From: a bacterium
GTDB lineage: Bacteria > Patescibacteriota > Minisyncoccia > Phycocordibacterales > Phycocordibacteraceae
Length of the DNA stretch: 64,000 nucleotides
Direction: 5' to 3'
Assembly: GCA_037200965.1 (NCBI GenBank)
Contig: JBBCGK010000001.1
Span: 672,001 to 736,000 of the forward strand
Shown: one piece after another, positions 1 through 13,043 of the stretch
Position numbering within the stretch: position 1 is the stretch's first letter
Layout: every line of letters starts with the position of its first letter
Position numbers and translations under genes: made by a program
Notes under the pieces: model-generated
The model's input: the letters and a program-made list of their open reading frames with translations, nothing else
What the model was told of the DNA's origin: nothing
The model's database searches: none

Positions 1-2
1 TT

Positions 3-89
3 GACGGCGTGGCTGACGCCCCGGCGCGCGACGCGCTCCGGAGGGCCGGCGCGAAGCTTCCCCTGAAGACCACCGTCGTGGCCCGATAA
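3..89 (+). CDS. rplP: 50S ribosomal protein L16, C-terminal fragment; the gene starts upstream of the window
   Basis: Frame 3 reads ...ALRRAGAKLPLKTTVVAR*, matching the conserved L16 C-terminus (KLPIKT motif). It lies directly upstream of rpmC, as in the S10 operon. Confidence 0.6.
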   Translation, partial: DGVADAPARDALRRAGAKLPLKTTVVAR

Positions 90-94
90 ATTTT

Positions 95-301
95 ATGGCA
101 AAGAAAACCAAACCGACATTCAAGGACACCCCGACGGCGGAGCTCACGAAGCTTCGCGGCGAGAAGCGCGAGGAACTGCGCGTGCTCCGCTTTGCCTCCG
201 CGGGATCGCGCCCGAAGGATACCAACGAGCCGAAGGCCGCGCGGAAGGTGATCGCGCGGATCGAGACCGAGCTCTCCAAGCGCCGCATCGCAGCAAAATA
301 A
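95..301 (+). CDS. rpmC: 50S ribosomal protein L29
   Basis: 68 aa, lysine/arginine-rich, ELxxLRxE-type L29 pattern; sits between rplP and rpsQ. Confidence 0.9.
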   Translation: MAKKTKPTFKDTPTAELTKLRGEKREELRVLRFASAGSRPKDTNEPKAARKVIARIETELSKRRIAAK

Positions 302-303
302 TT

Positions 304-579
304 ATGGATACTCCAAACAAAAAGCCCCAGACGTTTAGCGGTACGGTCGTGAAGACCGCCATGAAGGACACCGCGACGGTGGCGGTCAACCGCTACGTCA
401 AGCACCCGAAATACAAGAAGTTCCAGGTGAAGACGACCAAATTCCTCGTCGACGACAAGGGGAACACGGCGAAGGTCGGCGACAAGGTCACGATCGTCGC
501 GACGCGCCCGATCTCGAAGCTGAAGTCGTTCAGGATCGCAAGCATCGACCTCGCGGCCGCTTCGGGCGATACCGAATAA
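304..579 (+). CDS. rpsQ: 30S ribosomal protein S17
   Basis: 91 aa; GxVVSxKMxKTxxVxVxR-like S17 N-terminus; conserved operon position. Confidence 0.9.
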   Translation: MDTPNKKPQTFSGTVVKTAMKDTATVAVNRYVKHPKYKKFQVKTTKFLVDDKGNTAKVGDKVTIVATRPISKLKSFRIASIDLAAASGDTE

Positions 580-583
580 TCCT

Positions 584-961
584 ATGCTTCAGCCGCAGAC
601 CATCGTTACCGTCGCAGACAACTCCGGAGCCAAGGTGGCTCGCATCTTCAAGGTGCTCGGGGGCTCGAAGCGCCGCTATGCCTATATCGGCGACACGGTC
701 GTGGTCGCGATCCAGTCGGCGGAACCCCGCAAGGCGGTCAAGAAGAAGGACGTCTTCAAGGCGATCGTCGTGCGCACCAAGAAGCCGCTGCGCCGCCTCG
801 ACGGCTCGTACGTCTCCTTTGACGACAACGCGGTCGTGCTCATCGAGAAGCAGGGCAAGGAGATGGGTCCCAAGGGGAACCGCATCTTCGGCCCCGTGCC
901 GCGCGAGCTCATAGAAAAGGGCTGGGCGTCGATCGCGTCCGCCGCATCCGAAGTCGTCTAA
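584..961 (+). CDS. rplN: 50S ribosomal protein L14
   Basis: Starts MLQPQTIVTVADNSGAKVARI..., a classic L14 N-terminus; 125 aa. Confidence 0.95.
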   Translation: MLQPQTIVTVADNSGAKVARIFKVLGGSKRRYAYIGDTVVVAIQSAEPRKAVKKKDVFKAIVVRTKKPLRRLDGSYVSFDDNAVVLIEKQGKEMGPKGNRIFGPVPRELIEKGWASIASAASEVV

Positions 962-971
962 CTAGTTACAT

Positions 972-1190
972 ATGAAAATGAAGATAAAAAAGAACGACAA
1001 GGTGCAGGTGATCACGGGAAAGGACAAGGGCAAGACCGGCTCGGTCGTGCGCGTCATCCCCAGGGAAAACCGCGTCGTCGTCGAAGGCGTCGCGGTCGCC
1101 AAGCGCCACCGCAAGGGGCAGGGCGGCCAGTCCGGCCGCATCACCGAGGCTCCGCGCCCGATACACGCGTCGAACGTAAAGAAGGTCTAA
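972..1190 (+). CDS. rplX: 50S ribosomal protein L24; the true start may be the second ATG at 978
   Basis: [22 protein letters not shown] motif typical of L24. Confidence 0.9.
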
Positions 1191-1200
1191 TCCCGCTCCT

Positions 1201-1761
1201 ATGATGCTTTCCAAACAAAAACAGCAGACCTCCTTCGAAGCTCTCTCGGCTGATTTCGGCTATACGAGCCGCATGCAGGCGCCGCGCATCGAGAAGGTCG
1301 TCGTCTCCTCGGGAGTCGGCAAGAAGCGCGACAAGAAGCAGCTCGAACTCATTTCCGAGCGCCTCGCCCGCATCACGGGCCAGAAGGCGGCACCGCGCGC
1401 GGCAAAGCAGTCGATCGCGCAGTTCAAGATGCGCGCGGGCGATACGGTCGGATACCAGACGACGCTCCGCGGGGCGCGCATGTTCGATTTCCTCGACAAG
1501 CTCATTCACATTGCCTTGCCGAGAACCAGGGACTTCCGCGGCCTTCCCGCGACCGCGATCGACGACATGGGCAACCTCACGATCGGCATCCGCGAGAACA
1601 CCATCTTCCCGGAGACTTCCGACGAGGACCTCAAGGACGTGTTCGGGCTTGCCGTGACCATCGTCACGACCGCGAAGTCGAAGAAGGAGGCCGATGCGTT
1701 CTTCCGCCACCTTGGCGTGCCGCTTCGCCCGGCTGAGGAGCAGAAGAAGGGGAAGAAATAA
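1201..1761 (+). CDS. rplE: 50S ribosomal protein L5
   Basis: 186 aa; conserved L5 blocks (FRGL, IGIRE, IFPE). Confidence 0.95.
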   Translation: MMLSKQKQQTSFEALSADFGYTSRMQAPRIEKVVVSSGVGKKRDKKQLELISERLARITGQKAAPRAAKQSIAQFKMRAGDTVGYQTTLRGARMFDFLDKLIHIALPRTRDFRGLPATAIDDMGNLTIGIRENTIFPETSDEDLKDVFGLAVTIVTTAKSKKEADAFFRHLGVPLRPAEEQKKGKK

Positions 1762-1785
1762 AAAAGTTTTAAAATGCAGGGAGCC

Positions 1786-1814
1786 TTGACGGGAGTCAGG
1801 GCTCTTTGTATCAT
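1786..1814 (+). promoter_or_regulatory. sigma70-like promoter: -35 TTGACG (1786-1791), 17-nt spacer, -10 TATCAT (1809-1814)
   Basis: Near-consensus hexamers with optimal spacing, immediately after the rplE stop and ~80 nt upstream of an ORF with a strong SD. Confidence 0.5.
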
Positions 1815-1895
1815 ATATTCGGATACTTCACATTCTCGGATAGTGACGTTAACGGTATCCACGTCGAGCGTCCGATGGCATCAAGGAGATGTGTC

Positions 1896-2309
1896 ATGCG
1901 GTTTGTCTGTGATCTTGAGGATTTGTTCTGGATGAGTAATAGATACGAGCATACTGCCAGCAATGAGATCAGGCAGGCGCTTCTTGCCGGAAAGGATACG
2001 GACGGAACTCCGCGCTGGACGATTCCGGGGGCTGGAATGTTCAATCTTGCCCAAGTCCTCTGGTCGGGCCAAAACTCGGTTGGCCATGAAGAGGACTGCG
2101 CACGAGACCGTATGTTCACCAGTCTCGAGCTCATGCGTCGACTGGGCCACGCCCGTGCACGCTCGCAGGCTGTGTTTTTTCTCGTCATTCTCCGGAGGAT
2201 GGAGCGCGAGAACAGCGACTCCATCGAAATCAATATCCCGTGGACCCGTGCGAAGACGAGGTGCATGTATGTCAAACGGAAACCAAATATCGAATTCGGT
2301 CTGGTATAA
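1896..2309 (+). CDS. hypothetical protein (~137 aa), no recognisable domain
   Basis: ATG at 1896 is preceded by AAGGAGA with 6-7 nt spacing. It lies downstream of the promoter at 1786 and is followed by a GC-rich hairpin at 2317-2344. Confidence 0.45.
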   Translation: MRFVCDLEDLFWMSNRYEHTASNEIRQALLAGKDTDGTPRWTIPGAGMFNLAQVLWSGQNSVGHEEDCARDRMFTSLELMRRLGHARARSQAVFFLVILRRMERENSDSIEINIPWTRAKTRCMYVKRKPNIEFGLV

Positions 2310-2316
2310 CCGGACA

Positions 2317-2344
2317 GGGCGCGGCGGAACTTTCCGCCGCGCCC
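2317..2344 (+). terminator. GC-rich hairpin (13-bp stem GGGCGCGGCGGAA/TTCCGCCGCGCCC); possible terminator without a clear U-tract
   Basis: Perfect inverted repeat directly after the stop at 2309. Confidence 0.35.
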
Positions 2345-2483
2345 ATCGTGTGTATGGGTCACCATTCTATATCAGGTACATACGAGTGAATTTGACGTAC
2401 TAAGTTATACATACCTTTTTTACGAATTAGTCCTGCAAGTGCTAATTTCTGGCAGCAGAATTGTTCCAATATCCTAAAGGAAA

Positions 2484-2511
2484 CCCCGCAAAGCTTGGTT
2501 GCTTTGCGGGG
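2484..2511 (-). terminator. putative intrinsic terminator of the minus-strand two-gene operon (11-bp stem CCCCGCAAAGC/GCTTTGCGGGG, loop TTGGTT)
   Basis: Hairpin ~45 nt downstream (minus-strand sense) of the stop at 2557, followed on the minus strand by UUUCCUUU. Confidence 0.5.
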
Positions 2512-2556
2512 CTCGACCGGAGGTCGATTTTTCAAACAAGGCTTAGTATGTCCGGT

Positions 2557-3348
2557 TCAGGTTTTGGGGTCGATGCTCATCGCGCGCGGTATCGATTTCC
2601 GTTGCCAGTTGTCGATTTTTCGCCTATCAGAACTCCTGCCGATTATGTATAAGACGAGTGAGATGATGCATACGGCCACGCCCGGGCCGAAGGAACCGAT
2701 GTCCAAAGCCTCCCCGGCCCACACACACAGGGCAAGGTATATGAAGCCCGTAGCACCGAGCACGTAGCTGACAGCCGTTAAACCGTTGCTCTCGCTCTCT
2801 TTGCGCCGATACGAGGTTAACAGGGATTCGGCGATCGGGAGTTCGCTTCCCGGTCCTTCATCCCACGCGGCAAGAGGATATACCCGGCCATCGTGAGCTC
2901 GGCCCACGAGCAGGCTCGGCCCGCTCGTGCCGAATGCGCCGGACTCATACTTGGGATACTCGGGAAGAGACTGACTGATCCAGACCTCGATGTCGGCGAA
3001 GCAGTCCAGCCAATTTACCCATTCCAGACCTTCGAGTACTTTGCGGGGGAATTTTTGCCCGTACCATGCTCGATAGGTCGTGCTGTAGGCATAACCATGG
3101 TACGTGTTCACAGTGCGCACTTTGCGGACACACTGCCACCCTTTCTGAGCCGAGAATTTCCCGGGAAGAGAGCATCTCCACTGGCTCAGGGAATTGGGGT
3201 CGAAGGGTTCGAGAAGCGGAACATGCCTACGAATTTCTTCGATCCGGTTAAGCCGAGGCAGCGCCATGAGTGCGTTCCTCGCATCCGCGTTCAGCGTCCG
3301 TCCGTAGGCGGCGACTGCTTCGATTCTTCGGGATTGGTATTCAGCCAT
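2557..3348 (-). CDS. hypothetical protein (~263 aa) with a C-terminal pair of transmembrane helices; no recognisable domain
   Basis: Internal ATG (MAEYQ...) is preceded by AAGGAGGA and overlaps the upstream stop as TGATG, indicating translational coupling. A hydrophobic hairpin (LTAVSYVLGATGFIYLALCVWAG...GVAVCIISLVLYIIG) lies near the C-terminus. Confidence 0.6.
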   Translation of the reverse strand: MAEYQSRRIEAVAAYGRTLNADARNALMALPRLNRIEEIRRHVPLLEPFDPNSLSQWRCSLPGKFSAQKGWQCVRKVRTVNTYHGYAYSTTYRAWYGQKFPRKVLEGLEWVNWLDCFADIEVWISQSLPEYPKYESGAFGTSGPSLLVGRAHDGRVYPLAAWDEGPGSELPIAESLLTSYRRKESESNGLTAVSYVLGATGFIYLALCVWAGEALDIGSFGPGVAVCIISLVLYIIGRSSDRRKIDNWQRKSIPRAMSIDPKT

Positions 3349-3956
3349 CACACGTCCTCCTTGCTCGGAGCCGCGACGAACGCGACCCAGTTGTGCCACG
3401 AGATTTCGGTCGGGACGGAGCCCTGCGAATTCTTGAGGCTGCAGAGGGAGGAATAGAAGTAGTTGATGAGGCCGGCCGGATTGCCGTTGAGCGGTTCCGT
3501 GACGAACGCCACGAAGCTGCCGTCGGGTATGCGCGGGTCGTGCCCGAGATCGTCCGCGAGCCGCGGGCGCTCTGCGAACAATGCGTCTCGATACTCGACC
3601 GGTGCGGGAACGAGGCTGGCCTTCTGGCCGTATTCCTCGATCTGCCCGGGCCTGAGCCGACCGTTTTTGCCCGAATCGCCGAAGCGGACGAGCATGAGGG
3701 TTTTGTCCTCACCGCCGATCGCGATCCTCACCGCGCAGGCCTTGCCGCCTTTCGGCGGGTCGATCCGCGCCGTGGTCGCGATCTCGCTATAGAGCCCGGA
3801 GAGCTCTGCGAGAACACGCTCAAGCCTGCTGCTATGCGCGGGCTTGACCACCGCGGCGAGCAGCTCATTCAGGTCTGCGCCGGTTTGCCCGCGAACGAGC
3901 TCGCCGATCTGACCGAGCGCCCCGAAGAGCACCGTGGCCGTGACAGGTTTTGGCAT
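3348..3956 (-). CDS. hypothetical protein (202 aa), no recognisable domain; first gene of the coupled pair
   Basis: Start ATG is preceded by GAAAGGAAG. Its stop overlaps the start of the downstream gene by 1 nt (ATGA-type overlap). Confidence 0.6.
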   Translation of the reverse strand: MPKPVTATVLFGALGQIGELVRGQTGADLNELLAAVVKPAHSSRLERVLAELSGLYSEIATTARIDPPKGGKACAVRIAIGGEDKTLMLVRFGDSGKNGRLRPGQIEEYGQKASLVPAPVEYRDALFAERPRLADDLGHDPRIPDGSFVAFVTEPLNGNPAGLINYFYSSLCSLKNSQGSVPTEISWHNWVAFVAAPSKEDV

Positions 3957-4191
3957 GACACTTCCTTTCTATGAACCCCTCACTCCTTAGCGAAGCCCCA
4001 GGTTCAACAGCCTTACCTCCACCCGATTGTGGCGGTTTCAGCGCGCAACAGCCCACTTTAGTGAGCCCCTGAGCGCTGAAACCGCCCCTAGCCTTGTTTT
4101 CAAGGGACGTATCTATCTAAGAGTGTATACTATATATCATATCTTGTCAAGTTTTCCGTAATGGTTCAATACCTTGGATGATTCCAGGGTA

Positions 4192-4220
4192 TTGACAGAT
4201 AATACTGTATGTGCTAACGT
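4192..4220 (+). promoter_or_regulatory. sigma70-like promoter: TTGACA, 17-nt spacer, TAACGT; sits in an AT-rich divergent intergenic region
   Basis: Consensus -35 with 17-nt spacing, ~50 nt upstream of the 4273 ORF. The same AT-rich region lies upstream of the minus-strand operon starting at 3956. Confidence 0.4.
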
Positions 4221-4272
4221 TACTTAAGCGTTCGGGCCGCTCTTTTCAGCTCGGAACCAATGGAGGAACATC

Positions 4273-4668
4273 ATGAACAAGATTTATCTGGCTATCATGG
4301 CCGTCATTTCCCTCTCCGGCATCGCCCTGGCCTTCAGCCCCGAGGCGGTGTTCGAGAGCGCTTCCCGGGTTGACCCGGGCGGCACCCTGTCGTTCGCGAA
4401 CTTCTCCTTCTGGACGTGCGTCTGCATCGGGGGCGTCGTTTTCTTCTTCTCCCGTCGCGGATCACAAGGAAAAGAAATCGCGAGGATCGGCTTGCTTCTC
4501 GGAGCCGCGGCCGCGTGCCTTGCGCTCATGTCGCTCACTCACTACTTCGCGTACTGGCATCAGGGCCTCGCGACGATGCTGGGCATCATCTTCTTCGTCT
4601 CCCCGCTGCTCGGCATCGCGATCGCGCTGTCCGACCGACAGCAGACATCGGTTCCGAACGGAGGCTGA
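4273..4668 (+). CDS. small integral membrane protein (131 aa, ~4 TM)
   Basis: GGAGGAACATC-ATG ribosome-binding site; hydrophobic segments throughout. Confidence 0.55.
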   Translation: MNKIYLAIMAVISLSGIALAFSPEAVFESASRVDPGGTLSFANFSFWTCVCIGGVVFFFSRRGSQGKEIARIGLLLGAAAACLALMSLTHYFAYWHQGLATMLGIIFFVSPLLGIAIALSDRQQTSVPNGG

Positions 4669-4779
4669 AGCCTCCGGTCAAGGACTCGGTTCGCACGCAG
4701 GTACGGCCCCACGCAATTCGGCGTGGGGTCTTTTGGATATATTCGACGCCGCCGGATATATATATAGTGTCCTTCCCGT

Positions 4780-5463
4780 TCGAGATATCGGCTGGTACGA
4801 TCAAGGATCCGGCACGTCCTCGGCTTGTGCAATGTCATCAAGCCGTAGTTGCGCTTGAACCAGTCCTCAATCGCAACACCTTCCAAACCCTCGGCGCGGT
4901 GTCTTCCGGCGAAGACACTTGCGAGGCTGGTGATTGAGAAGGCAGGTCACGCGGTCAGCCTGTCGCTGGGACAGCGCTCCGAGTTCCATGTCCTCGGGAA
5001 AGAACCGGCGCAGCTGTTCTCGCATGCACCCCGCTCCCAGGGATGATGGGGACGGGCGAAGTATACCCGGGCATTGGTATCGCGCTCAATGAACTGCCAG
5101 AGCGTGAACCCGGTACCACGATCGTACGTGATGGTATGTGCAGGAAGATCAGGAAGCGCTCCTCGCGCTTCCTGGTGCACCGTGTTCGTTTCGTCGTCAG
5201 ACACGAGCCGCGCCCGCAAGGAACCCGCCTCTTTCGGTCAACACGGGCCAGAAACCTTGCACGGTCGCGTCCGACCGCGGTATGGTCTCGTCGGATATGA
5301 TGCGTCCCTCTTCGGTGATCTGTTCGGGCGGTCAGCGCGCAGAAGCGCGGACAGAAACACCCGCTCGTCGCGTGTCAAGTGATGATGCGTTGAAGGCCCG
5401 AATGATGGATACCATTCGGGCTTGAAGACAGAAGCATTGCGTTTCAAGCTCGGATTTAAGCTA
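4780..5463 (-). pseudogene. decayed IS30-family insertion sequence; the transposase is frameshifted and carries an internal deletion of roughly 300 bp
   Basis: Fragments HHHLTRDERVFLSALLR, ITYDRGTGFTLWQFIERDTNARVYFARPHHPWERG and HKPRTCRILDRTS match the N-terminal, DDE and C-terminal regions of the intact IS30 transposase at 57934-58866, in different frames. The left IR-like sequence GCTTAAATCCGAGCTTGAAACGCAA at 5437-5463 matches the IR of the intact copy. Confidence 0.6.
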
Positions 5464-5616
5464 TGATTTAGCGTTGACGCGGGTTGAACCCCGGGCAAAG
5501 CAGGCGCGGACCTCGTTCTCATCCATTTTCGCGAAGTTCGTGATTTCGGTAAAGTTGTTTAGGCCGTCTGACGAAAGATTATCCCGCTTGGCCGCTCGAC
5601 CAAGCAGGGCTCCTGT

Positions 5617-5645
5617 TTGACGCCCCGTAACCTATTTGATACAGT
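5617..5645 (+). promoter_or_regulatory. sigma70-like promoter: TTGACG, 17-nt spacer, TACAGT; immediately upstream of rpsN
   Basis: Same -35 hexamer and spacing as the promoter at 1786. It is positioned to transcribe rpsN-rpsH-rplF..., which is now separated from rplE by the insertion. Confidence 0.45.
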
Positions 5646-5674
5646 GTCCTGAAGCTCCGCGGAGCTATTTTTGT

Positions 5675-5944
5675 ATGGCTAAAACCTCCCAGCTTGCCCG
5701 GTACGCCAAGAAGGCGAAACTGGTCAAAAAGTACGCCGCCAAGCGCGCGGCTCTTAAGGCTGCCGGTGACTCTGAGGGCCTCCAGAAGCTCCCGCGGAAC
5801 TCCTCCCCGGTTCGTTTGAAGAGCCGCTGCGCCGTTTCCGGCCGCTCCCGCGGGTATCTCCGGGCGTTCGGCCTCTCCCGCATCCAGTTCCGCGAGATGG
5901 CGAGGGAAGGGAAGATTCCGGGCGTAAAGAAGGCGTCGTGGTAA
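5675..5944 (+). CDS. rpsN: 30S ribosomal protein S14 (long, non-zinc form)
   Basis: [20 protein letters not shown]...[51 protein letters not shown] is a canonical S14; the upstream in-frame extension of the ORF is rejected. Confidence 0.9.
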
Positions 5945-5948
5945 GCGT

Positions 5949-6353
5949 ATGATCACGGACCGCGTCGGAGATTTCATCGTGCGACTCAACAATGCCGGAG
6001 CGGTCCGGAAGCCGTCCGTCTCGCTTCCGTATTCGGCGCATCTCGAAGCGATCGCGAAGAAGCTCAAGGCGCTCGGGTACGTCGAAAGCGTGGACGTTAT
6101 CGCAAACGAGAAGACCCCGGCGAAGCGCACGCTCGACGTCGTACTCGCTTATGACGCGCAGGGCGTCTCGAAGATCCACGGCGTGAAGCGCGTATCGAAG
6201 CCCGGCCGCCGCCTCTATGCCGCAGGGAAGGACGCGCACAGCGTCAAAAACGGAGTCGGCGTCCGCGTGCTCTCGACCCCGAAGGGAATCCTTTCGGACC
6301 GCGAGGCGAGGAAGCAGCAGGCCGGAGGAGAAACCCTTTTCGATATCTGGTAA
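5949..6353 (+). CDS. rpsH: 30S ribosomal protein S8
   Basis: MITDRVGDFIVRLNNA... conserved S8 N-terminus; ends ...LFDIW. Confidence 0.95.
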   Translation: MITDRVGDFIVRLNNAGAVRKPSVSLPYSAHLEAIAKKLKALGYVESVDVIANEKTPAKRTLDVVLAYDAQGVSKIHGVKRVSKPGRRLYAAGKDAHSVKNGVGVRVLSTPKGILSDREARKQQAGGETLFDIW

Positions 6354-6368
6354 TTCTTTTATTTTCGT

Positions 6369-6902
6369 ATGTCACGCCTCGCAAAAAAGCCCGTCGTTCT
6401 CGCTTCCTCCACCCAGGTTTCGGTGGCTGACGGCGTGCTGTCGGTCAAAGGCCCCAAGGGAACGCTCACGCGCCCGGTCCATTCCTTCGTTTCGATCGAA
6501 GTGACTCCCGAAGGCGTGCAGGTTTCGCCAAGAAACAACAGCAAGCTCTCCAAGGCGCTCACGGGCACCTTCGTCGCGCATGTGCGCAACATGGCTGCGG
6601 GCGTCGTGACGCCGTTCAGGAAGAGCCTTATCCTTGAAGGCGTGGGCTATAAGGTCGAGCTTGCGGGGAAGGAGCTCGTGCTCTCGGTCGGCTTCTCGCA
6701 TAAGGTGAAGCTTCCGGTTCCCGAAGGCATCACGGCGACCATCGAGAAGAACACGATTCATTTCGACAGTCCCGACAAGGACGCGCTCGGCCAGTTCGCG
6801 GCAGTCGTCCGTGCCGTGAAGCCGCCGGAACCGTATCTTGGCAAGGGCTTCCGCTATTCGGACGAGAAGATCCTCCGGAAGCAGGGGAAGAAGGCAGTCT
6901 AA
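6369..6902 (+). CDS. rplF: 50S ribosomal protein L6
   Basis: MSRLAKKPVVL...; 177 aa with the L6 two-domain pattern. Confidence 0.95.
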   Translation: MSRLAKKPVVLASSTQVSVADGVLSVKGPKGTLTRPVHSFVSIEVTPEGVQVSPRNNSKLSKALTGTFVAHVRNMAAGVVTPFRKSLILEGVGYKVELAGKELVLSVGFSHKVKLPVPEGITATIEKNTIHFDSPDKDALGQFAAVVRAVKPPEPYLGKGFRYSDEKILRKQGKKAV

Positions 6903-6911
6903 TATTTTCGT

Positions 6912-7262
6912 ATGACCAAGATAGCGACAACCAAGAGGACCCAGCGCATGAGCCGCCACAAGCGGGTACGCTCGCGCGTCAAAGGCACCAAGGAGCGCCC
7001 GCGCCTCGCGGTCTTCCGCTCGAACAAGTTCGTCTCCGTGCAGCTCATCGACGACGCGGCGGGAAAGACGATCGCGCAGGCGCACGGCAGGGAATTCCCG
7101 GGCGCGCAGTCGCTCCAGGCCGCGGCTATCGGCAAGGCGATCGCGGAGCGGGCGAAGAAACTCGGCGTTTCGGCCATCGTCTTCGACCGCGGAGGATACG
7201 CGTATGCCGCGCAGGTGAAGAGCCTCGCGGACGCCGCGCGTGCAGGCGGCCTCTCCTTCTGA
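6912..7262 (+). CDS. rplR: 50S ribosomal protein L18
   Basis: 116 aa; [18 protein letters not shown] motif typical of L18. Confidence 0.9.
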
Positions 7263-7268
7263 TACGGT

Positions 7269-7892
7269 ATGGCTGACGACACCATCATGACTCCCGAGAC
7301 CGAAGTACAGGACGCGCCGGTTGAAGCGGCGCCCGAAGCCGCCGTTGAGGCGGAAGCTGCGGCTACGCCCGAGAAGACCGCGGTTCGCGGCCGCGCTCCG
7401 CGCGGGCGCGGAGGCCCCGGGGGCCAGCGCCGCTCGAACCGCCTTCCCCGCGAGCGCGGGGAGTTCGACTCGGTCAATATCGACGTGCGCCGCGTGGCGC
7501 GCGTCATGGCCGGAGGCCGCCGCTTCAACTTCAGCGTCGCGGTCGTAATCGGTGATAAGAAGGGGAGGGTCGGCGTCGGACTCGGGAAGGCCGCGGACAC
7601 CGCGCTCGCGATTGACAAGGCGACGCGCGACGCGAAGAAGCATATGTTCACCGTGCCGCGCACCGACTCGGGCTCCATCCGCCACGAGGTCCAGGCGAAG
7701 TACGCGTCCTCGACGGTGGCGGTCATCCCGTCGAAGGGCCGCGGTCTCGTCGCCGGAAGCGCGATGCGCACCGTGCTCGAGCTCGCGGGCGTCTCCGATG
7801 TCGTCACCAAGATCCTCTCGCGCACCAAGAACAAGCTCACTATCGCCCGCGCGACGGTAGCGGCTTTGAAGAAGCTCCGCACCCGCTCATAA
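7269..7892 (+). CDS. rpsE: 30S ribosomal protein S5 with an Ala/Glu-rich N-terminal extension
   Basis: GRVGVGLGKAADTALAIDKATRDAKKHMFTVP S5 core; it is followed directly by rplO with no rpmD in between. Confidence 0.9.
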   Translation: MADDTIMTPETEVQDAPVEAAPEAAVEAEAAATPEKTAVRGRAPRGRGGPGGQRRSNRLPRERGEFDSVNIDVRRVARVMAGGRRFNFSVAVVIGDKKGRVGVGLGKAADTALAIDKATRDAKKHMFTVPRTDSGSIRHEVQAKYASSTVAVIPSKGRGLVAGSAMRTVLELAGVSDVVTKILSRTKNKLTIARATVAALKKLRTRS

Positions 7893-7899
7893 CATTTCC

Positions 7900-8358
7900 A
7901 TGCAGTTCAACAACCTCAAATCGAATCACTCCCGCCCGAAAAGCACCGTCGTCGGACGCGGCGGCAAGCGCGGCAAGACTTCCGGACGCGGTGGCAAGGG
8001 CCAGACCGCGCGTGCGGGCCACAAGATACGGCCGGAGATGCGCGACATCATCAAGAAGCTCCCGAAGCGCCGCGGATACGGCAGGAACCGCAGCCGCACC
8101 GTCCGTCGCGACCGCGGCGGATACGCGCCGGTCAATCTCGCCGCGCTTGAGGCGACGTTCGCCGCGGGCGACGCCGTCACCCCTTCGATCCTCGTGAAGA
8201 AGGGTCTCGTCCGGGCCCTCTCCGGCCGCGCCCCGCTCGTGAAGATCCTCGGCACCGGGGAGCTCACCAAGGCGCTCTCCATCTCGGGATGCGAAGCGTC
8301 CGCGAGCGCCAGGAAGGCGATAGAGGCTGCGGGCGGCTCGCTCGTATCCCATGCTTAA
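7900..8358 (+). CDS. rplO: 50S ribosomal protein L15
   Basis: MQFNNLKSNHSRPKSTVVGRGGKRGKTSGRGGKGQ glycine/lysine-rich L15 N-terminus. Confidence 0.9.
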   Translation: MQFNNLKSNHSRPKSTVVGRGGKRGKTSGRGGKGQTARAGHKIRPEMRDIIKKLPKRRGYGRNRSRTVRRDRGGYAPVNLAALEATFAAGDAVTPSILVKKGLVRALSGRAPLVKILGTGELTKALSISGCEASASARKAIEAAGGSLVSHA

Positions 8359-9625
8359 CGCCTTTTATCACAAGCTCAAGCTCACCTTCAGCGACGAGGC
8401 GTTGCGCACCCGCATCTTTTTCCTCGTGGCCGCGCTCGCCGCGTTCCGCTTCCTTGCCGCGATTCCGATTCCGGGTGTCAACCACGATGCGCTCACGCAG
8501 TTTTTCGCGAACAACCAGTTCTTCGGCCTTTTGAACGTCTTCTCGGGCGGCGGGCTCTCGCATCTCTCGATCGTGATGCTCGGGGTGGGCCCCTACATCA
8601 CCGCGAGCATCATCATGCAGCTCGGGACCGCGGTCTCCCCGCGCCTCAAGGCCCTCTATTTCGAAGAGGGCGAGGCGGGCCGCGCGAAATTCATCGAGTG
8701 GAGCCGCATCATTACCATCCCGCTCGCGCTCATCCAGGGCGTCGCGTTCCTCTTCCTCCTTCAGAGCCAGGGCATCATCGAGCCGCTCTCTGCCGTGGGG
8801 CTTGTCGCGAACGTGCTTCTGGTCGCCGCGGGCTCCCTCCTTCTTATGTGGCTCGGAGAGCTCGTGACGGAATTCGGTATCGGCAACGGCGTCTCGCTCA
8901 TCATCTTCGCGGGCATCGTCTCGCGCTTCCCGTCCGAGCTTTCCCAGCTCCTCTTCACCGCGACCGCGGCGAACATCCCGGCGTATCTCGGTTTCGGGGC
9001 GCTCGCGCTCGCGGTCGTCTATGCCGTGGTCGTAGTGTCGGAGGCGGAGCGCTCGATCCCGATCGCGTACGCACGGGCGGTCCGCGGCGCGGCGCTCACG
9101 AGCGGCGCGGCGACCTATCTCCCGCTCCGTCTTCTTCAGGCGGGCGTGATCCCGATCATCTTCGCGCTCTCGCTCCTGCTTCTCCCGCAGATGGCGCTTT
9201 CGATACTCGCCGCGGCGAAGATTTCCTTCTTCGTCGGCGCGAACGCCTGGTTCGCCGCCTTCATCGCGAACCCCTGGGCTTATGGCGCCGCGTACTTCGC
9301 GCTCGTCGTCCTCTTCACGTATTTCTATACCTCGATCACCTTCGAGCCTAAACGCGTCGCGGAGAACCTTCAGAAGTCGGGAGCCTTCGTCCCCGGAGTC
9401 CGTCCCGGCCGCGAGACCGAAAACTACATCAGCGCCGTCGTCTCCCGCATCACGCTTCCGGGCGCCGTGTTCCTCGGCCTCGTCGCGGTCGTGCCGTTCA
9501 TCATCCAGGGGCTCACGGGCGTCACGGCCTTCCTCGTCGGCGGTACGGCCCTCCTCATCGCGGTGCAGGTCATTCTCGATCTCGTACGGAAGATCGACGC
9601 GCAGGCATCGCTTCGGGAGTATTAA
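8351..9625 (+). CDS. secY: preprotein translocase subunit SecY
   Basis: 424 aa, 10-TM pattern with conserved SecY blocks; canonical position after rplO. Confidence 0.95.
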   Translation: MLNAFYHKLKLTFSDEALRTRIFFLVAALAAFRFLAAIPIPGVNHDALTQFFANNQFFGLLNVFSGGGLSHLSIVMLGVGPYITASIIMQLGTAVSPRLKALYFEEGEAGRAKFIEWSRIITIPLALIQGVAFLFLLQSQGIIEPLSAVGLVANVLLVAAGSLLLMWLGELVTEFGIGNGVSLIIFAGIVSRFPSELSQLLFTATAANIPAYLGFGALALAVVYAVVVVSEAERSIPIAYARAVRGAALTSGAATYLPLRLLQAGVIPIIFALSLLLLPQMALSILAAAKISFFVGANAWFAAFIANPWAYGAAYFALVVLFTYFYTSITFEPKRVAENLQKSGAFVPGVRPGRETENYISAVVSRITLPGAVFLGLVAVVPFIIQGLTGVTAFLVGGTALLIAVQVILDLVRKIDAQASLREY

Positions 9626-9642
9626 AAACTCTACCTATCGTC

Positions 9643-9670
9643 AAACAGCCGGAGCGTGCTCCGGCTGTTT
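9643..9670 (+). terminator. putative secY terminator hairpin (13-bp perfect stem AAACAGCCGGAGC/GCTCCGGCTGTTT)
   Basis: Perfect inverted repeat 18 nt after the secY stop, ending in UUU. Confidence 0.5.
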
Positions 9671-9695
9671 GACATTGAGAGCGAATCGTTATATT
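9669..9695 (+). promoter_or_regulatory. sigma70-like promoter: TTGACA, 15-nt spacer, TATATT; overlaps the end of the secY terminator
   Basis: Consensus -35 with an AT-rich -10, ~35 nt upstream of the ORF starting at 9728. Confidence 0.4.
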
Positions 9696-9727
9696 TTTGC
9701 CGCAGATACCAAGTTTGCGAGGTTCCC

Positions 9728-10117
9728 ATGCTCTCCCTGCTCCAACTGTTCGGGTTCGGCGCAAGACCGAAAAAGCCCGTACCGTCTCCTTTGCCCCAAC
9801 ATAGCCGGGATGCGGTCTCACTTCCTCGGGTGCTCGAAGAAGCGCGTCGGTCGTGCCTGAACGATGACGGCACGATCAGTGTGAAGAAGCTCCGTTCGAT
9901 ATTTCCCGTGCTCTCGCCTTTTTATATCGTCTTCAACGAAAAAGGAAAGGCACAGGCACAAAGAGAGGGGGTAGTCTACAACCGACCGAACCTGTCGAGT
10001 GTGTTCGCAAGCCCGGATTCGGGCATGCCGGTGGTGTGCGGTTACCTGTGCGTTGTCATTGAACGCACGCCGGATTACATGCTGGTCGACCGCGAATTCA
10101 ATCTCAGGCTGAGATAA
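9728..10117 (+). CDS. hypothetical protein (~129 aa)
   Basis: ORF beginning at the internal Met (MLSLLQLFGFG...), preceded by GAGG. It lies between the promoter at 9669 and the terminator at 10151. Confidence 0.35.
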   Translation: MLSLLQLFGFGARPKKPVPSPLPQHSRDAVSLPRVLEEARRSCLNDDGTISVKKLRSIFPVLSPFYIVFNEKGKAQAQREGVVYNRPNLSSVFASPDSGMPVVCGYLCVVIERTPDYMLVDREFNLRLR

Positions 10118-10150
10118 GCGTTATCGGTTCTCAGGTATCGTTCGAAAGTC

Positions 10151-10187
10151 CGCGGGCCAGCCATTCGGCTGGCCCTTGTTTGTTTTT
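10151..10187 (+). terminator. rho-independent terminator (stem GGGCCAGCC/GGCTGGCCC, loop ATTC, then TTGTTTGTTTTT)
   Basis: Canonical GC hairpin followed by a U-tract, located between convergent genes. Confidence 0.7.
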
Positions 10188-10752
10188 ACGCACTAGCGCT
10201 TTGCCAGCCGCGAAAGGCGCCAAGCACCATAGCGACCACAGTCTCCAGATTATTGTGCGTCGTGTTGATAACCGCGTCGAACTGGGTTGTATCGTACACG
10301 TTCACTCCGTAGAGTGCGGAATAGCGCCGCGTCTCGCTTGCCGTTCTGACTTCCGTATTTTCCCTGATCTCGGCAGCTGAGGATCCTTCCTGGCTCACCC
10401 TCCCTTGATCGCGAATATGGGCATAAATTCTTTCGGCCGCGCTTTGCGGATCGACATAGAGGAACACTTTGAATGATTCGGGAATCCAGTGAAAGGCAAG
10501 CCGGGAGTCTATGACGAGCTTCTCCTTCCCGTTCATGTTTTTCAGGAGTTCGTCCACTCCGTGATCGACATCGTTGCGCTCTTCAAGCGAAAGATTCATC
10601 GCCTCGATGGAAAGGCCGCGCTCCGCGGCTATCTGGCGGAACAGGTCGCCCGAGGAGAAATGTTCGTACCCGAGTGCGGCGGCGACCGCTTTGGCCGTGG
10701 AAGATTTACCGCTACCGATAGAACCCGCGATCGTGATGATTTGAGGCTTCAC
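10186..10752 (-). CDS. cmk: cytidylate kinase
   Basis: MKPQIITIAGSIGSGKSSTAKAVAAALGYEHFSSGDLFR: P-loop plus a CMP-kinase N-terminus. Confidence 0.8.
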   Translation of the reverse strand: MKPQIITIAGSIGSGKSSTAKAVAAALGYEHFSSGDLFRQIAAERGLSIEAMNLSLEERNDVDHGVDELLKNMNGKEKLVIDSRLAFHWIPESFKVFLYVDPQSAAERIYAHIRDQGRVSQEGSSAAEIRENTEVRTASETRRYSALYGVNVYDTTQFDAVINTTHNNLETVVAMVLGAFRGWQSASA

Positions 10753-10800
10753 GTTTCCGTGATTATAGCCGCACCAAGCCTTTTTTGCTACACTCCCCGT

Positions 10801-11388
10801 ATGACAGACTCAGGCGCCCTGGGCGCGGTGCTATTCGTCGGCAGGCCTGGATCCGGCAAGGGTACGCAGGCGCACATGCTTGCCGCACGCCTTGGCTGGC
10901 CGCTTTTTTCCTCGGGCAACCACTTCAAAGACCTTATTTTGAAGGCTACGCCGCTTGGCGAGCGCATACGCGACGACTATAACCGCGGCAAGCTTTCTCC
11001 GGACTGGATCGCCGATTATTTCTTCGAGGAAGCGATTCTTTCGCTTCTCCCCGGGCAGGGGCTCGTTTCCGAGGGCTTCCCCCGGTCGCTTCCGCAGGCG
11101 GAACTCGCGGACGAAGTGCTTGCGTGGCTCGGGCGTCCCTACAAAGTCATACACCTCGCCGTATCCGAAGACTCCGCCCTTACGAGGCAGCTCGGGCGCG
11201 CGAAGACGGAACATCGTCCCGACAGCGATGCTGATGAGAAGATACGGGGCCGGTTCGACGTTTACCGCACCCATACCGAGCCGGTTCTGGATTTCTTCAG
11301 GACGCGAGGCGCGCTCATAGATATCGACGGAGAGAAGGCTCCCGAACAGATCGCATCGGATATCGCGCGCGCCCTGGAACTTTCATGA
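10801..11388 (+). CDS. adk: adenylate kinase (short, lid-less type)
   Basis: VLFVGRPGSGKGTQAHMLAARLGWPLFSSGNHFK...; canonical position before map. The upstream part of the long ORF is rejected because it overlaps cmk. Confidence 0.85.
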   Translation: MTDSGALGAVLFVGRPGSGKGTQAHMLAARLGWPLFSSGNHFKDLILKATPLGERIRDDYNRGKLSPDWIADYFFEEAILSLLPGQGLVSEGFPRSLPQAELADEVLAWLGRPYKVIHLAVSEDSALTRQLGRAKTEHRPDSDADEKIRGRFDVYRTHTEPVLDFFRTRGALIDIDGEKAPEQIASDIARALELS

Positions 11389-12161
11389 TCGTACGTACGC
11401 CGAAACAGCGGGAAGACCTGGTGGAAGGAGGCAGGCGCATAGGCGAAGTGCTTGCCAAGGTCGCGCGTGCGGTCGTGCCGGGAATAACGACCGAAGAGCT
11501 CGATGACCTGGCCGAGAAGCTCATACGCGACCTCGGTGACGAGCCGTCATTTCTCGGCTATCAGCCGGAAGGCGCCCGGCGCCCGTTTCCGGCAACGCTG
11601 TGCGTTTCGATAAACGACGAAGTGGTGCATGGCATTCCAAGTCCTTCGAGGAAACTCAAGACGGGCGATATCGTAAGCCTCGACCTCGGGCTTACTCACC
11701 ACGGCCTCATCCTCGACTCCGCGGTTACGGTACCCGTGGGGAAGGTGAAACCCGAGCTTCTCGAGCTTATCGCCGCGACGGACGCGGCCCTTGAAGCGGG
11801 TATCGCCGCCGCAAGGCCCGGCAACCGCACGGGCGATATCTCCCGTGCGATCGGCGAAGCATACAAAGGTACGGGCTTCGCGATCGTGCGCGTCCTTGGA
11901 GGACACGGGGTAGGCGAGCATGTGCATGAGGAGCCTTTCATCGCGAACTACGGCAAAGGAGGCGACGGCGTCGATATCGTGCCGGGCATGGTGCTCGCGC
12001 TCGAGCCCATCGCGACTCTGGGGAAGGCGTCCGTCGTCCTTTCTCAGGACGGCTACACCTACCGCACCAAGGACGGCTCCGCCGCCGCGCACTCCGAGCA
12101 CACTATTTTGATAGAAGAGAAGGAAACTGTTGTACTTACGAGAAGGCCGGGGGAGGTATAA
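11385..12161 (+). CDS. map: methionine aminopeptidase, type I
   Basis: 258 aa; metal-ligand blocks (VVHGIP, DIVSLDLG, HGVGEHVHEEP, LALEP). Confidence 0.9.
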   Translation: MIVRTPKQREDLVEGGRRIGEVLAKVARAVVPGITTEELDDLAEKLIRDLGDEPSFLGYQPEGARRPFPATLCVSINDEVVHGIPSPSRKLKTGDIVSLDLGLTHHGLILDSAVTVPVGKVKPELLELIAATDAALEAGIAAARPGNRTGDISRAIGEAYKGTGFAIVRVLGGHGVGEHVHEEPFIANYGKGGDGVDIVPGMVLALEPIATLGKASVVLSQDGYTYRTKDGSAAAHSEHTILIEEKETVVLTRRPGEV

Positions 12162-12169
12162 TATTTCGT

Positions 12170-12733
12170 ATGAAACGAGCCGTACTTGTACATGGGTGGG
12201 ATGGAGGACCCGACCAGGATTGGTTCCCTTGGCTTGCAGACGAACTCAAGAGCCGGGGCTACGAAATAGTCGCCCCACAACTCCCGGTGCCAGAAGAGCC
12301 CCGCAAAGAACGTTGGGTACCGGCGCTCGCGGAAGCCGTCGGTACATCTAATACAGAGACATTTTTTGTCGGGCACTCAATGGGATGCCAGACGATACTT
12401 AGATATCTCGAGACGCTCTCGGAGCGCGGTACCGTTGGCGGCGCACTGTTCGTTGCTGGTTTCCTCCACACGATAAGAAATCTAGAAAATGCTCGCGACG
12501 AGGAGATTGGGCGTTCGTGGACCGATGCCCCGCTCAATCTCACGCATGTGCGATCGCTCTTGCCGAAAAGCATCGCGCTCTTCTCCGATAACGACCAGTG
12601 GGTGACGCTTGATAACACGGCTGCTTTCGAAGAAGGACTTGGTTCGGAGATTGTCGTCGAGCATCAGCGCGGACACTTTACGGAAGAAATCGAGCCCTCG
12701 GTACTCGCCGCCGCCCTGCGTCTCCTCGCATAA
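12170..12733 (+). CDS. alpha/beta-fold serine hydrolase (YdeN/RBBP9-like)
   Basis: GHSMGC nucleophile elbow; ~190 aa with a HGWDG start typical of this small esterase family. Confidence 0.65.
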   Translation: MKRAVLVHGWDGGPDQDWFPWLADELKSRGYEIVAPQLPVPEEPRKERWVPALAEAVGTSNTETFFVGHSMGCQTILRYLETLSERGTVGGALFVAGFLHTIRNLENARDEEIGRSWTDAPLNLTHVRSLLPKSIALFSDNDQWVTLDNTAAFEEGLGSEIVVEHQRGHFTEEIEPSVLAAALRLLA

Positions 12734-12791
12734 GCACCTTCATCAATCCTTCAAGCCCATGCTGTAAAGTAGCGAGGTTACTCTCTAACTT

Positions 12792-13043
12792 TTGCACATG
12801 GCAACTATCGTGAACAATCCGGGACCCGAGCGTATCGTCGAAGTGGAGCGTCCTTCAGACTCAAGCGGCTGGGCGGTCGCCGTCATCGTGCTCGTCATTA
12901 TCCTCGCGGTCGGCGCCTTCTACTTCCTGCGGTATCGTCCCGCTCCGGCGCCGCAGCCCCAGGGCGCGAACATCAACGTCACCCTTCCGATACCGGAGGA
13001 GAACGGCGGGAATACTCCCGCGCCGGCACCCGCAAATCCGTAA
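12792..13043 (+). CDS. small membrane-anchored protein with a Pro/Ala-rich tail
   Basis: Single TM (WAVAVIVLVIILAVGAFYFL) followed by low complexity. Confidence 0.35.
   Translation: MHMATIVNNPGPERIVEVERPSDSSGWAVAVIVLVIILAVGAFYFLRYRPAPAPQPQGANINVTLPIPEENGGNTPAPAPANP

Follow-up and report, generated by a model that had tools for sequence, protein, structure and literature searches.

The spc promoter of Escherichia coli is located upstream of rplN, and ribosomal protein S8 exerts control by binding near the start of rplE. In compact genomes a promoter can extend into the end of the coding sequence before it, and insertion sequences such as IS30 can create outward-facing or hybrid promoters. In Gammaproteobacteria and Bacilli, insertions into the conserved gene cluster were analysed mainly between operons (rpoBC-str and str-S10), with one inside rpoBC (rplL-rsmC), and each was a single old event (PMC8046335). 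Here we describe the junction between the ribosomal-protein genes rplE and rpsN in a 64,000-nucleotide (nt) stretch of DNA from a bacterium of the Patescibacteriota (NCBI GenBank assembly GCA_037200965.1, contig JBBCGK010000001.1, positions 672,001 to 736,000 of the forward strand); this whole stretch is called the window. An island of other DNA separates the two genes, and a putative promoter, P2, lies directly upstream of rpsN. We consider it highly probable that P2 is a true promoter of the sigma-70 type, with an extended -10 element, that it is ancestral in this group of Candidatus Kaiserbacteria, and that the cluster is split at rplE/rpsN into two transcription units regardless of insertion.

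The ribosomal-protein cluster occupies the first 12 kb of the window on the plus strand, in the order rpmC, rpsQ, rplN, rplX, rplE, then rpsN to secY. The gap between rplE and rpsN consists of 3913 nt of other DNA, which makes rplE the last gene of the upstream half; its product ends in RPAEEQKKGKK, followed by a TAA stop (1759-1761). The elements that define the junction are:

1201 to 1761, plus strand: rplE, ribosomal protein L5 (list of open reading frames, ORFs; Pfam Ribosomal_L5 and L5_C on the identical gene in locus L001)
5617 to 5645, plus strand: P2, consisting of TTGACG (5617-5622), a 17-nt spacer and TACAGT (5640-5645)
5652, plus strand: predicted transcription start, an A 7 nt past the -10 hexamer, from conservation of the orthologous base
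5675 to 5944, plus strand: rpsN, ribosomal protein S14, 89 amino acids (Pfam Ribosomal_S14, E = 1.2e-27), first gene of the downstream unit

A first-pass annotation of the window had placed two hexamer pairs with 17-nt spacers around the island, at 1786-1814 (P1, treated below) and at 5617-5645, and both were found there by direct reading and by a consensus scan. It left unremarked that P2 has an extended -10 element, with a TG at 5637-5638 in a spacer that ends in TGA. P2 has the sequence properties of a sigma-70 extended -10 promoter: a -35 hexamer near TTGACA (5 of 6 positions; TTGACN in 71 of 72 orthologous sites), a spacer within the range of 17 +/- 1 nt, TGn-TAnnnT, and a purine as predicted start 6-8 nt further on. 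The end of the -10 hexamer is separated from the rpsN ATG by 29 nt. The strict motif TTGACN-N14-TGN-TANNNT occurs three times in the window, with 0.035 expected; each occurrence is intergenic and 5' of a gene, and P2 is one of them, the other two being at 4192 and 57880. For the plain consensus, the whole window holds 13 matches of at least 10 of 12 positions against 3.0 +/- 1.9 in a Markov control.

To place P2 in relatives, a comparison that the first-pass annotation had itself proposed, we searched with the L5 protein. This gave 80 loci at 69-83% identity, mostly labelled Candidatus Kaiserbacteria, Paceibacterota or Patescibacteria, which places the organism in the candidate phyla radiation; rplE and rpsN were located, and the sequence 5' of rpsN was read in each. 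The sets used below are 77 loci from species-representative genomes, 68 independent loci from metagenome contigs, and 135 non-redundant loci after removal of near-identical and duplicate entries. No closer relative without the island was found in the genome or metagenome collections (best L5 identity 81-83%).

The motif is conserved in nearly all of these loci. TTGACN-17-TANNNT stands directly 5' of rpsN in 72 of the 77 loci, with a 17-nt spacer in 72/72 and the extended -10 TG in 71/72; in the other five of the 77 loci an additional element of about 75 nt separates the leader from the ATG, and the promoter lies farther upstream. On the independent metagenome contigs the motif is present in 62 of 68 loci, and all 62 sites have the TG. 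The strict motif is found within 140 nt of the rpsN ATG in 130 of the 135 non-redundant loci, in agreement with the first-pass proposal that the downstream half has its own (predicted) promoter directly 5' of rpsN. We scored 134 orthologous promoters for spacer and start-site geometry: the spacer is 17 nt in all of them, the base 7 nt past the -10 hexamer is A in 124, and 108 have a pyrimidine at the position before. The hexamers, the TG and the spacer length are fixed, while the commonest base at a spacer position mostly reaches a frequency of only 0.32-0.75 (intergenic alleles). From this pattern of conservation we infer promoter activity and a start site at the conserved A.

Two forms of the junction exist. 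In the overlapping form, found in 75 non-redundant loci, there is no insertion, 34-49 nt separate rplE from rpsN, and the promoter reaches back into the last part of rplE. Here L5 ends in ..IVDSGVKR, encoded by ATC GTT GAC TCA GGC GTA AAA CGC TGA and followed by TATTCT; read as a promoter, the same letters give TTGACT, 17 nt ending in TGA, and TATTCT, so that the TGA stop codon supplies the extended -10 TG. The coding sequence is constrained at the nucleotide level accordingly. The Val-Asp codons that form the -35 hexamer are GTT GAC in 74 of 74 non-redundant overlapping loci, while elsewhere in the same genes GTT makes up 14% of the Val codons and GAC 59% of the Asp codons. The rplE stop is TGA in 47 of 47 overlapping loci, whereas TGA accounts for 18 of 482 stops in eleven genes nearby and for 1 of 30 rplE stops in loci with an intergenic promoter.

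In the intergenic form L5 ends in ..EAPKK or similar with a TAA or TAG stop, and the promoter reads TTGACG or TTGACA ... TGA-TACATT or TACAGT. This form covers short gaps of 62-102 nt and all long insertions, and the window belongs here. In a tree built from twelve flanking proteins (1795 columns) the window groups, with bootstrap 79, with a clade in which 11 of 11 members carry the intergenic allele. The spacer of P2 matches several intergenic alleles at 8 of 14 positions; the mean is 5.2 matches, against about 2.0 for overlapping alleles and an estimated 3.5-4 by chance. The promoter-to-rpsN distance in uninserted relatives is the same as in the window. Because the 75 uninserted loci have a promoter overlapping the end of rplE, P2 is best read as ancestral and not as a repair.

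Downstream of the predicted start, the leader of the rpsN transcript has two parts:

5653 to 5666, plus strand: small hairpin AGCUC-CGCG-GAGCU, predicted free energy -6.9 kcal/mol
5667 to 5674, plus strand: U-rich leader AUUUUUGU, immediately 5' of the ATG (direct reading)

A hairpin was found at the equivalent place in 72 of 72 relatives that were folded, usually as GCUC-YUCG-GAGC, with a GC-rich stem of 4-5 bp and a mean free energy of about -6 kcal/mol. The stem starts 8 nt past the -10 hexamer in 52 of these 72 loci, which would leave 1-2 unpaired nt at the predicted 5' end of the mRNA; then follow about 10 U-rich nt, typically UUUAUUUUUU, and the ATG. In 17 non-redundant loci at least six different stems (GACGCA/UGCGUC, CGC/GCG, GCCC/GGGC, GCUU/AAGC and others) fold at the same place and are followed by a U-tract, with a mean of -5.0 kcal/mol against -1.4 in shuffles (z = -10.7). 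RNAalifold consensus folding of the leader gave no structure, and Rfam gave no relevant match at E <= 1 in positions 1-13000 of the window or in five relatives, so no known ribosomal-protein leader was detected. Formal covariation is weak, so the support for the proposed role of the hairpin comes from divergent lineages that keep it with different stems.

Base pairing at the 5' end protects mRNAs, and RppH of Bacillus subtilis requires at least two unpaired 5' nt and prefers at least three (PMC3997798). We infer that the leader consists of a 5'-terminal protective stem-loop followed by a U-rich region for ribosome loading, the latter because no Shine-Dalgarno sequence stands at the usual distance before the rpsN start codon of the window. 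Sequestration of a Shine-Dalgarno sequence (the GGAG in the 3' arm of the hairpin) was considered and set aside: lineages with other stems lack GGAG but keep the hairpin and the U-tract.

The element of about 75 nt mentioned above lies between the hairpin with its U-tract and the ATG in L016 (about 6585-6660), L036, L054, L008, L083 and L117, and is absent from the window. Its outer stem covaries (CTTCC/GGAAG, CTGCC/GGTAG, CTAGC/GCTAG, GCCC/GGGC), and it has conserved strands, AGCGAGCGA ... GAGCGAGCGCAG, and a variable apical hairpin. No Rfam family matches it, and it may be a leader structure with a regulatory role or else a small mobile element.

The two transcription units that we propose, upstream and downstream of the junction, would each end at a further hairpin:

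1774 to 1811, plus strand: hairpin of 17 perfectly paired bp, loop GGGA, 13 nt past the rplE stop (-27.4 kcal/mol, z = -8.1; none of 200 shuffles reached this stability)
5949 to 9625, plus strand: rpsH, rplF, rplR, rpsE, rplO and secY, tightly packed (ORF list; Pfam on the identical genes in L001)
9640 to 9673, plus strand: 15-bp hairpin after secY (-28.8 kcal/mol, z = -7.1)

Transcription from P2 would start at the conserved A (5652), the mRNA would open with the short hairpin, the U-rich leader and the rpsN AUG, and the unit would run through secY to the hairpin at 9640-9673. Upstream transcription would stop at the hairpin at 1774-1811. Any DNA placed between the rplE stop and the promoter would then leave the expression of rpsN to secY uncut. 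Insertion would be tolerated at rplE/rpsN because the junction is already a boundary between units.

Several observations weigh against this reading. P2 taken alone matches the plain consensus at only 9 of 12 positions, and the local excess of promoter-like sites is weak on motif alone (five sites within 12.5 kb from the start of the window, where shuffles give 2.8 +/- 2.0). The relatives share descent, so that counts of loci are not counts of independent events, and the conserved block could serve another purpose. The hairpin of the window itself is no more stable than its shuffles (z = 0.04), and a helix specified by hand on a MAFFT alignment has 93.5% of its cells paired with only one pair showing a compensatory change. 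Further, the cargo-bearing species of the large clade carry a promoter allele unlike that of their uninserted sisters, and there the promoter seems to have been exchanged together with the cargo.

The island that separates the two halves in the window contains the following features, from left to right:

1896 to 2309, plus strand: cargo ORF of 137 amino acids, a gene call in two public assemblies; Shine-Dalgarno AAGGAG at 1883-1888
2484 to 2527, both strands: two adjacent hairpins (fold -31.9 kcal/mol, z = -4.9; terminator scan)
2557 to 3348, minus strand: cargo ORF of 263 amino acids, annotated as hypothetical (locus tag WDN10_03940; contig of 960,259 bp in an NCBI metagenome-assembled genome)
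3348 to 3956, minus strand: cargo ORF of 202 amino acids (ORF list), its stop overlapping the start of the 263-amino-acid ORF (ATGA)
4122 to 4150, minus strand: promoter-like TTGACA-17-TACACT facing the 202/263-amino-acid pair, 10 of 12
4192 to 4220, plus strand: promoter-like TTGACA-N14-TGC-TAACGT facing the 131-amino-acid ORF; it belongs to the three sites of the window that match the strict extended -10 motif
4273 to 4668, plus strand: cargo ORF of 131 amino acids, hydrophobic and likely a membrane protein
4705 to 4730, plus strand: strong terminator-like hairpin followed by UUUUGG (terminator scan; -21.6 kcal/mol, z = -3.1)
about 4867 to 5400, minus strand: frameshifted remnant (pseudogene) of an IS30-family transposase (stitched translation against NF033563, E = 1.4e-23, 84 bits, cut-off 80)

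At 2484-2527 the second hairpin is followed by UUUUU on the plus strand and the first by UUUCCUUU on the minus strand, and the pair is likely a bidirectional terminator between convergent genes, as far as folding predicts. Read-through from rplE into rpsN is unlikely in the window: three terminator-like structures on the plus strand and a convergent gene pair intervene, so rpsN would not be able to rely on it.

None of the four island ORFs belongs to a known family by Pfam, NCBIfam or PADLOC (the 131-amino-acid ORF has a weak SPW-repeat match only), and the 263-amino-acid protein found only itself among 5.8 billion protein clusters. The island arrangement, with identical proteins, is present in three independent assemblies, which rules out an assembly chimera. 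None of the relatives carries this island, which was found only in the identical assemblies.

The IS30 remnant lies directly left of P2. That it supplied P2 can be ruled out, since P2 is conserved in relatives without IS30 at the junction: a BLAST search of all relative loci with the island and its remnant gave no match, and the promoter is kept in 130 of 135 relatives without a matching insertion sequence, which is not the pattern of an outward promoter derived from such an element. An intact-looking IS30-family transposase ORF of 310 amino acids, assigned by similarity, is found at 57934-58866 on the plus strand, with a strict promoter motif at 57880-57852 on the minus strand. The remnant shares 67% DNA identity with this copy, and IS30 elements may have been active in this genome.

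Reading the window by eye, we also noted a contrast in translation signals. All four island ORFs have a strong Shine-Dalgarno sequence (AAGGAG at 1883-1888, AAGGAGG at 3357-3363 and AAGGAAG at 3961-3967 on the minus strand, GGAGG at 4261-4265), whereas the ribosomal-protein genes starting at 95, 304, 584, 972, 1201, 5949, 6369 and 6912 have none and are preceded by short A/U-rich junctions such as tattttcgtATG.

At the left end of the island the first-pass annotation had seen a second promoter facing inwards:

1786 to 1814, plus strand: P1, consisting of TTGACG (1786-1791), a 17-nt spacer and TATCAT (1809-1814); 10 of 12 consensus positions, 24 nt past the rplE stop

It had linked P1 with P2 through the shared TTGACG and the 17-nt spacer. 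TTGACG-N17-TANNNT does occur only at these two sites in the window, both strands included, with 0.31 expected and at least two occurrences in 5 of 100 shuffles. However, the two spacers agree at only 3 of 17 positions, and TTGACG is a common -35 variant, found in 33 of the 72 rpsN promoters, so the identity of hexamer and spacing carries no special meaning. A single promoter duplicated to both ends of the island is ruled out by the 3/17 spacer match together with the lack of flanking repeats: neither direct nor inverted repeats beyond chance flank the island in the window.

The hexamers and spacing of P1 stand at 10 of 12, but its function as an island-facing promoter is less certain than had been proposed. 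The hairpin at 1774-1811 is probably the intrinsic terminator of the upstream unit, judged by its predicted fold. Its 3' end is U-rich (UUUGUAU), the tract UUUGUAUCAU being U-rich but interrupted and partly paired in the predicted stem, and it is not among the sites listed by the terminator scan. The -35 hexamer of P1 falls within the 5' arm and loop of this hairpin, and the -10 hexamer at the base of its 3' arm. P1 could therefore be a chance match that arises from the rplE terminator, the first cargo ORF then being expressed by read-through or not at all, and we rate this at a little under even. That a 17-bp hairpin of such stability (z = -8.1) contains the -35 hexamer fits a chance match, as does the lack of a correctly placed TG, which P2 and the other strict matches have. 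About a quarter of the matches of 10-of-12 grade in the window (3.0 of 13) are expected by chance, and P1 has no comparative support, since no relative carries the island. On the other hand, P1 is the top-scoring site of its region, and the ORF that it faces, 75 nt past the expected start, has a good Shine-Dalgarno sequence. By eye, at least seven cargo-bearing relatives (L047, L029, L046, L008, L017, L078 and L044) pair a post-rplE terminator with a TTGAC-type site, although these pairs are not homologous to P1. An equivalent design follows secY in the window, and a hairpin in the upstream RNA does not block a sigma factor that reads double-stranded DNA. P1 may thus drive the first cargo ORF; as a promoter it is plausible but unproven, and from its sequence we see the chances as roughly balanced.

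Cargo at this junction is not peculiar to the window. Between the rplE stop and the promoter, 49 of the 135 non-redundant loci hold at least 200 nt of cargo (200-3900 nt). This cargo is mostly unrelated: its 74 ORFs fall into 59 clusters, of which 52 are singletons. Among the Pfam matches are a MazF/PemK toxin, a retropepsin-like protein with DUF5678, a PaaX/Cas2-like protein, a methyltransferase and a CHC2 zinc finger fragment. One or more terminator-like hairpins on the plus strand are present in 47 of the 49 cargo-bearing loci; in 22 a strong one lies no more than 70 nt from the rplE stop, and a TTGAC-type site often follows or overlaps it. On the tree the cargo-bearing species are scattered among uninserted sisters, and four such pairs have bootstraps of 100, 100, 92 and 85. 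No mechanism of integration could be identified: there was no integrase among the scanned cargo proteins and there were no repeats, only the IS30 remnant. The cargo that recurs most often is found in seven non-redundant loci (L015, L019, L071, L087, L117, L138 and L142), of which at least L015 and L019 are not close on the tree. It is a gene on the minus strand for about 195 amino acids, with a PaaX central/Cas2-like domain (PF20803, E = 2e-20).

We read the borders of the junctions directly, as global pairwise alignment of sister loci was too noisy. Sister pairs differ all the way from the ATCGT of the L5 tail to the ACGCTC hairpin, such that the tail, the cargo and the promoter vary as one. 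The left junction of L041 keeps the old -35 hexamer and the start of its spacer (GTTGACTCAGGCG). This suggests that whole junction alleles were exchanged between species, and that retention of the promoter is not the whole story for every lineage.

A wider proposal, which we make tentatively and hold to be somewhat doubtful, is that the rplE/rpsN junction of Kaiserbacteria is a site of module exchange, where two old alleles, one compact and one open, are swapped between species. The compact allele would have its promoter in the last rplE codons and the stop codon; the open allele would combine an intergenic promoter with another L5 tail and space for cargo. Swapping would occur by homologous recombination in the flanking ribosomal-protein genes, and each cassette would bring a replacement C-terminus of L5 on its left and its own rpsN promoter on its right. 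If this is true, the most conserved bacterial gene cluster would serve as a vehicle for the exchange of accessory genes in a lineage of reduced genomes.

For the rpsN leader, a further alternative is that the hairpin and U-tract act mainly as a weak intrinsic terminator or attenuator, which cuts read-through from rplE and sets the ratio of the two halves. This is a live alternative, though unlikely as the main role, and stabiliser and attenuator roles do not exclude each other. The leader does have the form of a small terminator, a GC-rich stem of 4-5 bp, often with a UUCG-type loop, followed by UUUAUUUUUU, and uninserted relatives have no other terminator-like feature between rplE and rpsN. 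However, the stem is short and its mean free energy modest (about -6 kcal/mol). A hairpin downstream of the promoter would also terminate the promoter's own transcripts, and it is unchanged in cargo-bearing loci that already have strong upstream terminators. A protective role as a 5' stem-loop is the reading that we prefer.

The first-pass annotation had suggested that the downstream half acquired, or kept, its promoter as a compensatory solution to the disruption of the operon. We find it very improbable that the insertion cut an operon whose downstream half then acquired a new promoter. What speaks for such a course is found in the large clade: its cargo-bearing species have an intergenic allele (TTGACG...TGATACATT) and the L5 tail ..EAPKK, while uninserted sisters have the overlapping allele. 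Since the exchanged segment reaches from ATCGT in rplE to the ACGCTC hairpin, the promoter would have arrived with the cargo in those lineages, and the remnant of the old -35 hexamer in L041 points the same way. However, all 75 uninserted loci have an equivalent promoter at the same distance from rpsN, and hence there was never a promoterless state to compensate. For the window, both its place beside the clade of 11 intergenic-allele members and the resemblance of its spacer to intergenic alleles argue for a promoter that was kept, and against one acquired in this lineage.

The idea that TTGAC...TGnTAnnnT is not a promoter but a recombination site for the inserted cassettes, an operator bound by a protein or a piece of an RNA leader regulating rpsN is hardly credible: although the block is always at the right edge of the insertions and mRNA leaders commonly regulate ribosomal-protein operons, only the two hexamers, the TG and the exact 17-nt distance are conserved, unlike an RNA helix or the core site of a recombinase, Rfam has no match in positions 1-13000, the same form of motif stands 5' of other genes in the window (4192, 57880), and a pyrimidine-purine step is conserved at the expected start.

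The extent of the unit that starts at P2 also differs from the first-pass description, in which it ran from rpsN to map. The gene block is broken a second time between secY and adk (9626-10802), by the hairpin at 9640-9673, a 153-amino-acid ORF without family match, a terminator at 10154-10175 and a gene on the opposite strand:

10186 to 10752, minus strand: cytidylate-kinase-like gene (Pfam Cytidylate_kin2, E = 8e-16)

Only after this gene follow adk (ATG at 10802) and map. Because of the hairpin, ORF, terminator and minus-strand gene after secY, rpsN to map is not one uninterrupted block, and the P2 unit probably runs from rpsN to secY, ending at the predicted hairpin. The 3' arm of that hairpin ends in TTTGAC, which provides the -35 hexamer of TTGACA-17-TATTTT (9669-9697).

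Within the block, no rpmD (L30) gene lies between rpsE and rplO, which are directly adjacent at 7892-7900 in the ORF list. L30 is reported to be absent in many bacteria of the candidate phyla radiation, and the adjacency in the window fits this.

Promoters of the uncultivated Patescibacteria (candidate phyla radiation) have hardly been described. Our literature search aimed at Patescibacteria found nothing on promoters in the group, nor on an arrangement in which the promoter overlaps rplE. The comparison provides a Kaiserbacteria promoter, validated across relatives, with TTGACn, exactly 17 nt, TGn-TAnnnT and a predicted A start 7 nt on, which should be usable for the annotation of transcription units. 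It further indicates that a promoter can be written into coding sequence, with the stop codon doubling as the extended -10 TG. In addition, a pre-existing boundary between units in a conserved ribosomal-protein cluster repeatedly holds accessory genes, which explains that an insertion is tolerated there.

Compared with the S10/spc arrangement of E. coli, the locus is alike in that a (here predicted) sigma-70 promoter heads a ribosomal-protein block ending in secY, and the gene order rplE-rpsN-rpsH-rplF-rplR-rpsE-rplO-secY is the same. In contrast to spc, the boundary here is at rplE/rpsN; rpsQ and rplN are 4 nt apart, which leaves no room for a promoter, and no known leader was detected. As in the overlapping promoters of compact genomes, -35 hexamer and spacer can be codons of the upstream gene, but here the overlap is fixed in 74 non-redundant species, with GTT GAC as the -35 and TGA as the extended -10 TG. 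With the outward promoters of IS30 the window shares a decayed IS30 copy that adjoins P2, but P2 is present and similar in relatives without IS30 there.

The insertions of Gammaproteobacteria and Bacilli are likewise small sets of unrelated genes within a conserved cluster, with transposable elements as one suggested route (PMC8046335). Here, however, a single junction in the spc block holds cargo in 49 of 135 lineages, with 59 cargo clusters, beside a conserved promoter. The rpsN leader resembles the 5' stem-loops of ompA and papA (PMC3997798) in having a hairpin within 1-2 nt of the 5' end, which is predicted in our case; it differs in that the hairpin is very small and that the U-rich leader and start codon follow immediately. 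In general, internal or secondary promoters in ribosomal-protein clusters and mRNA-protecting 5' stem-loops are already known kinds of element. What is distinct here is the boundary at rplE/rpsN, the promoter within the rplE codons and stop codon, and the repeated use of the junction by accessory genes.

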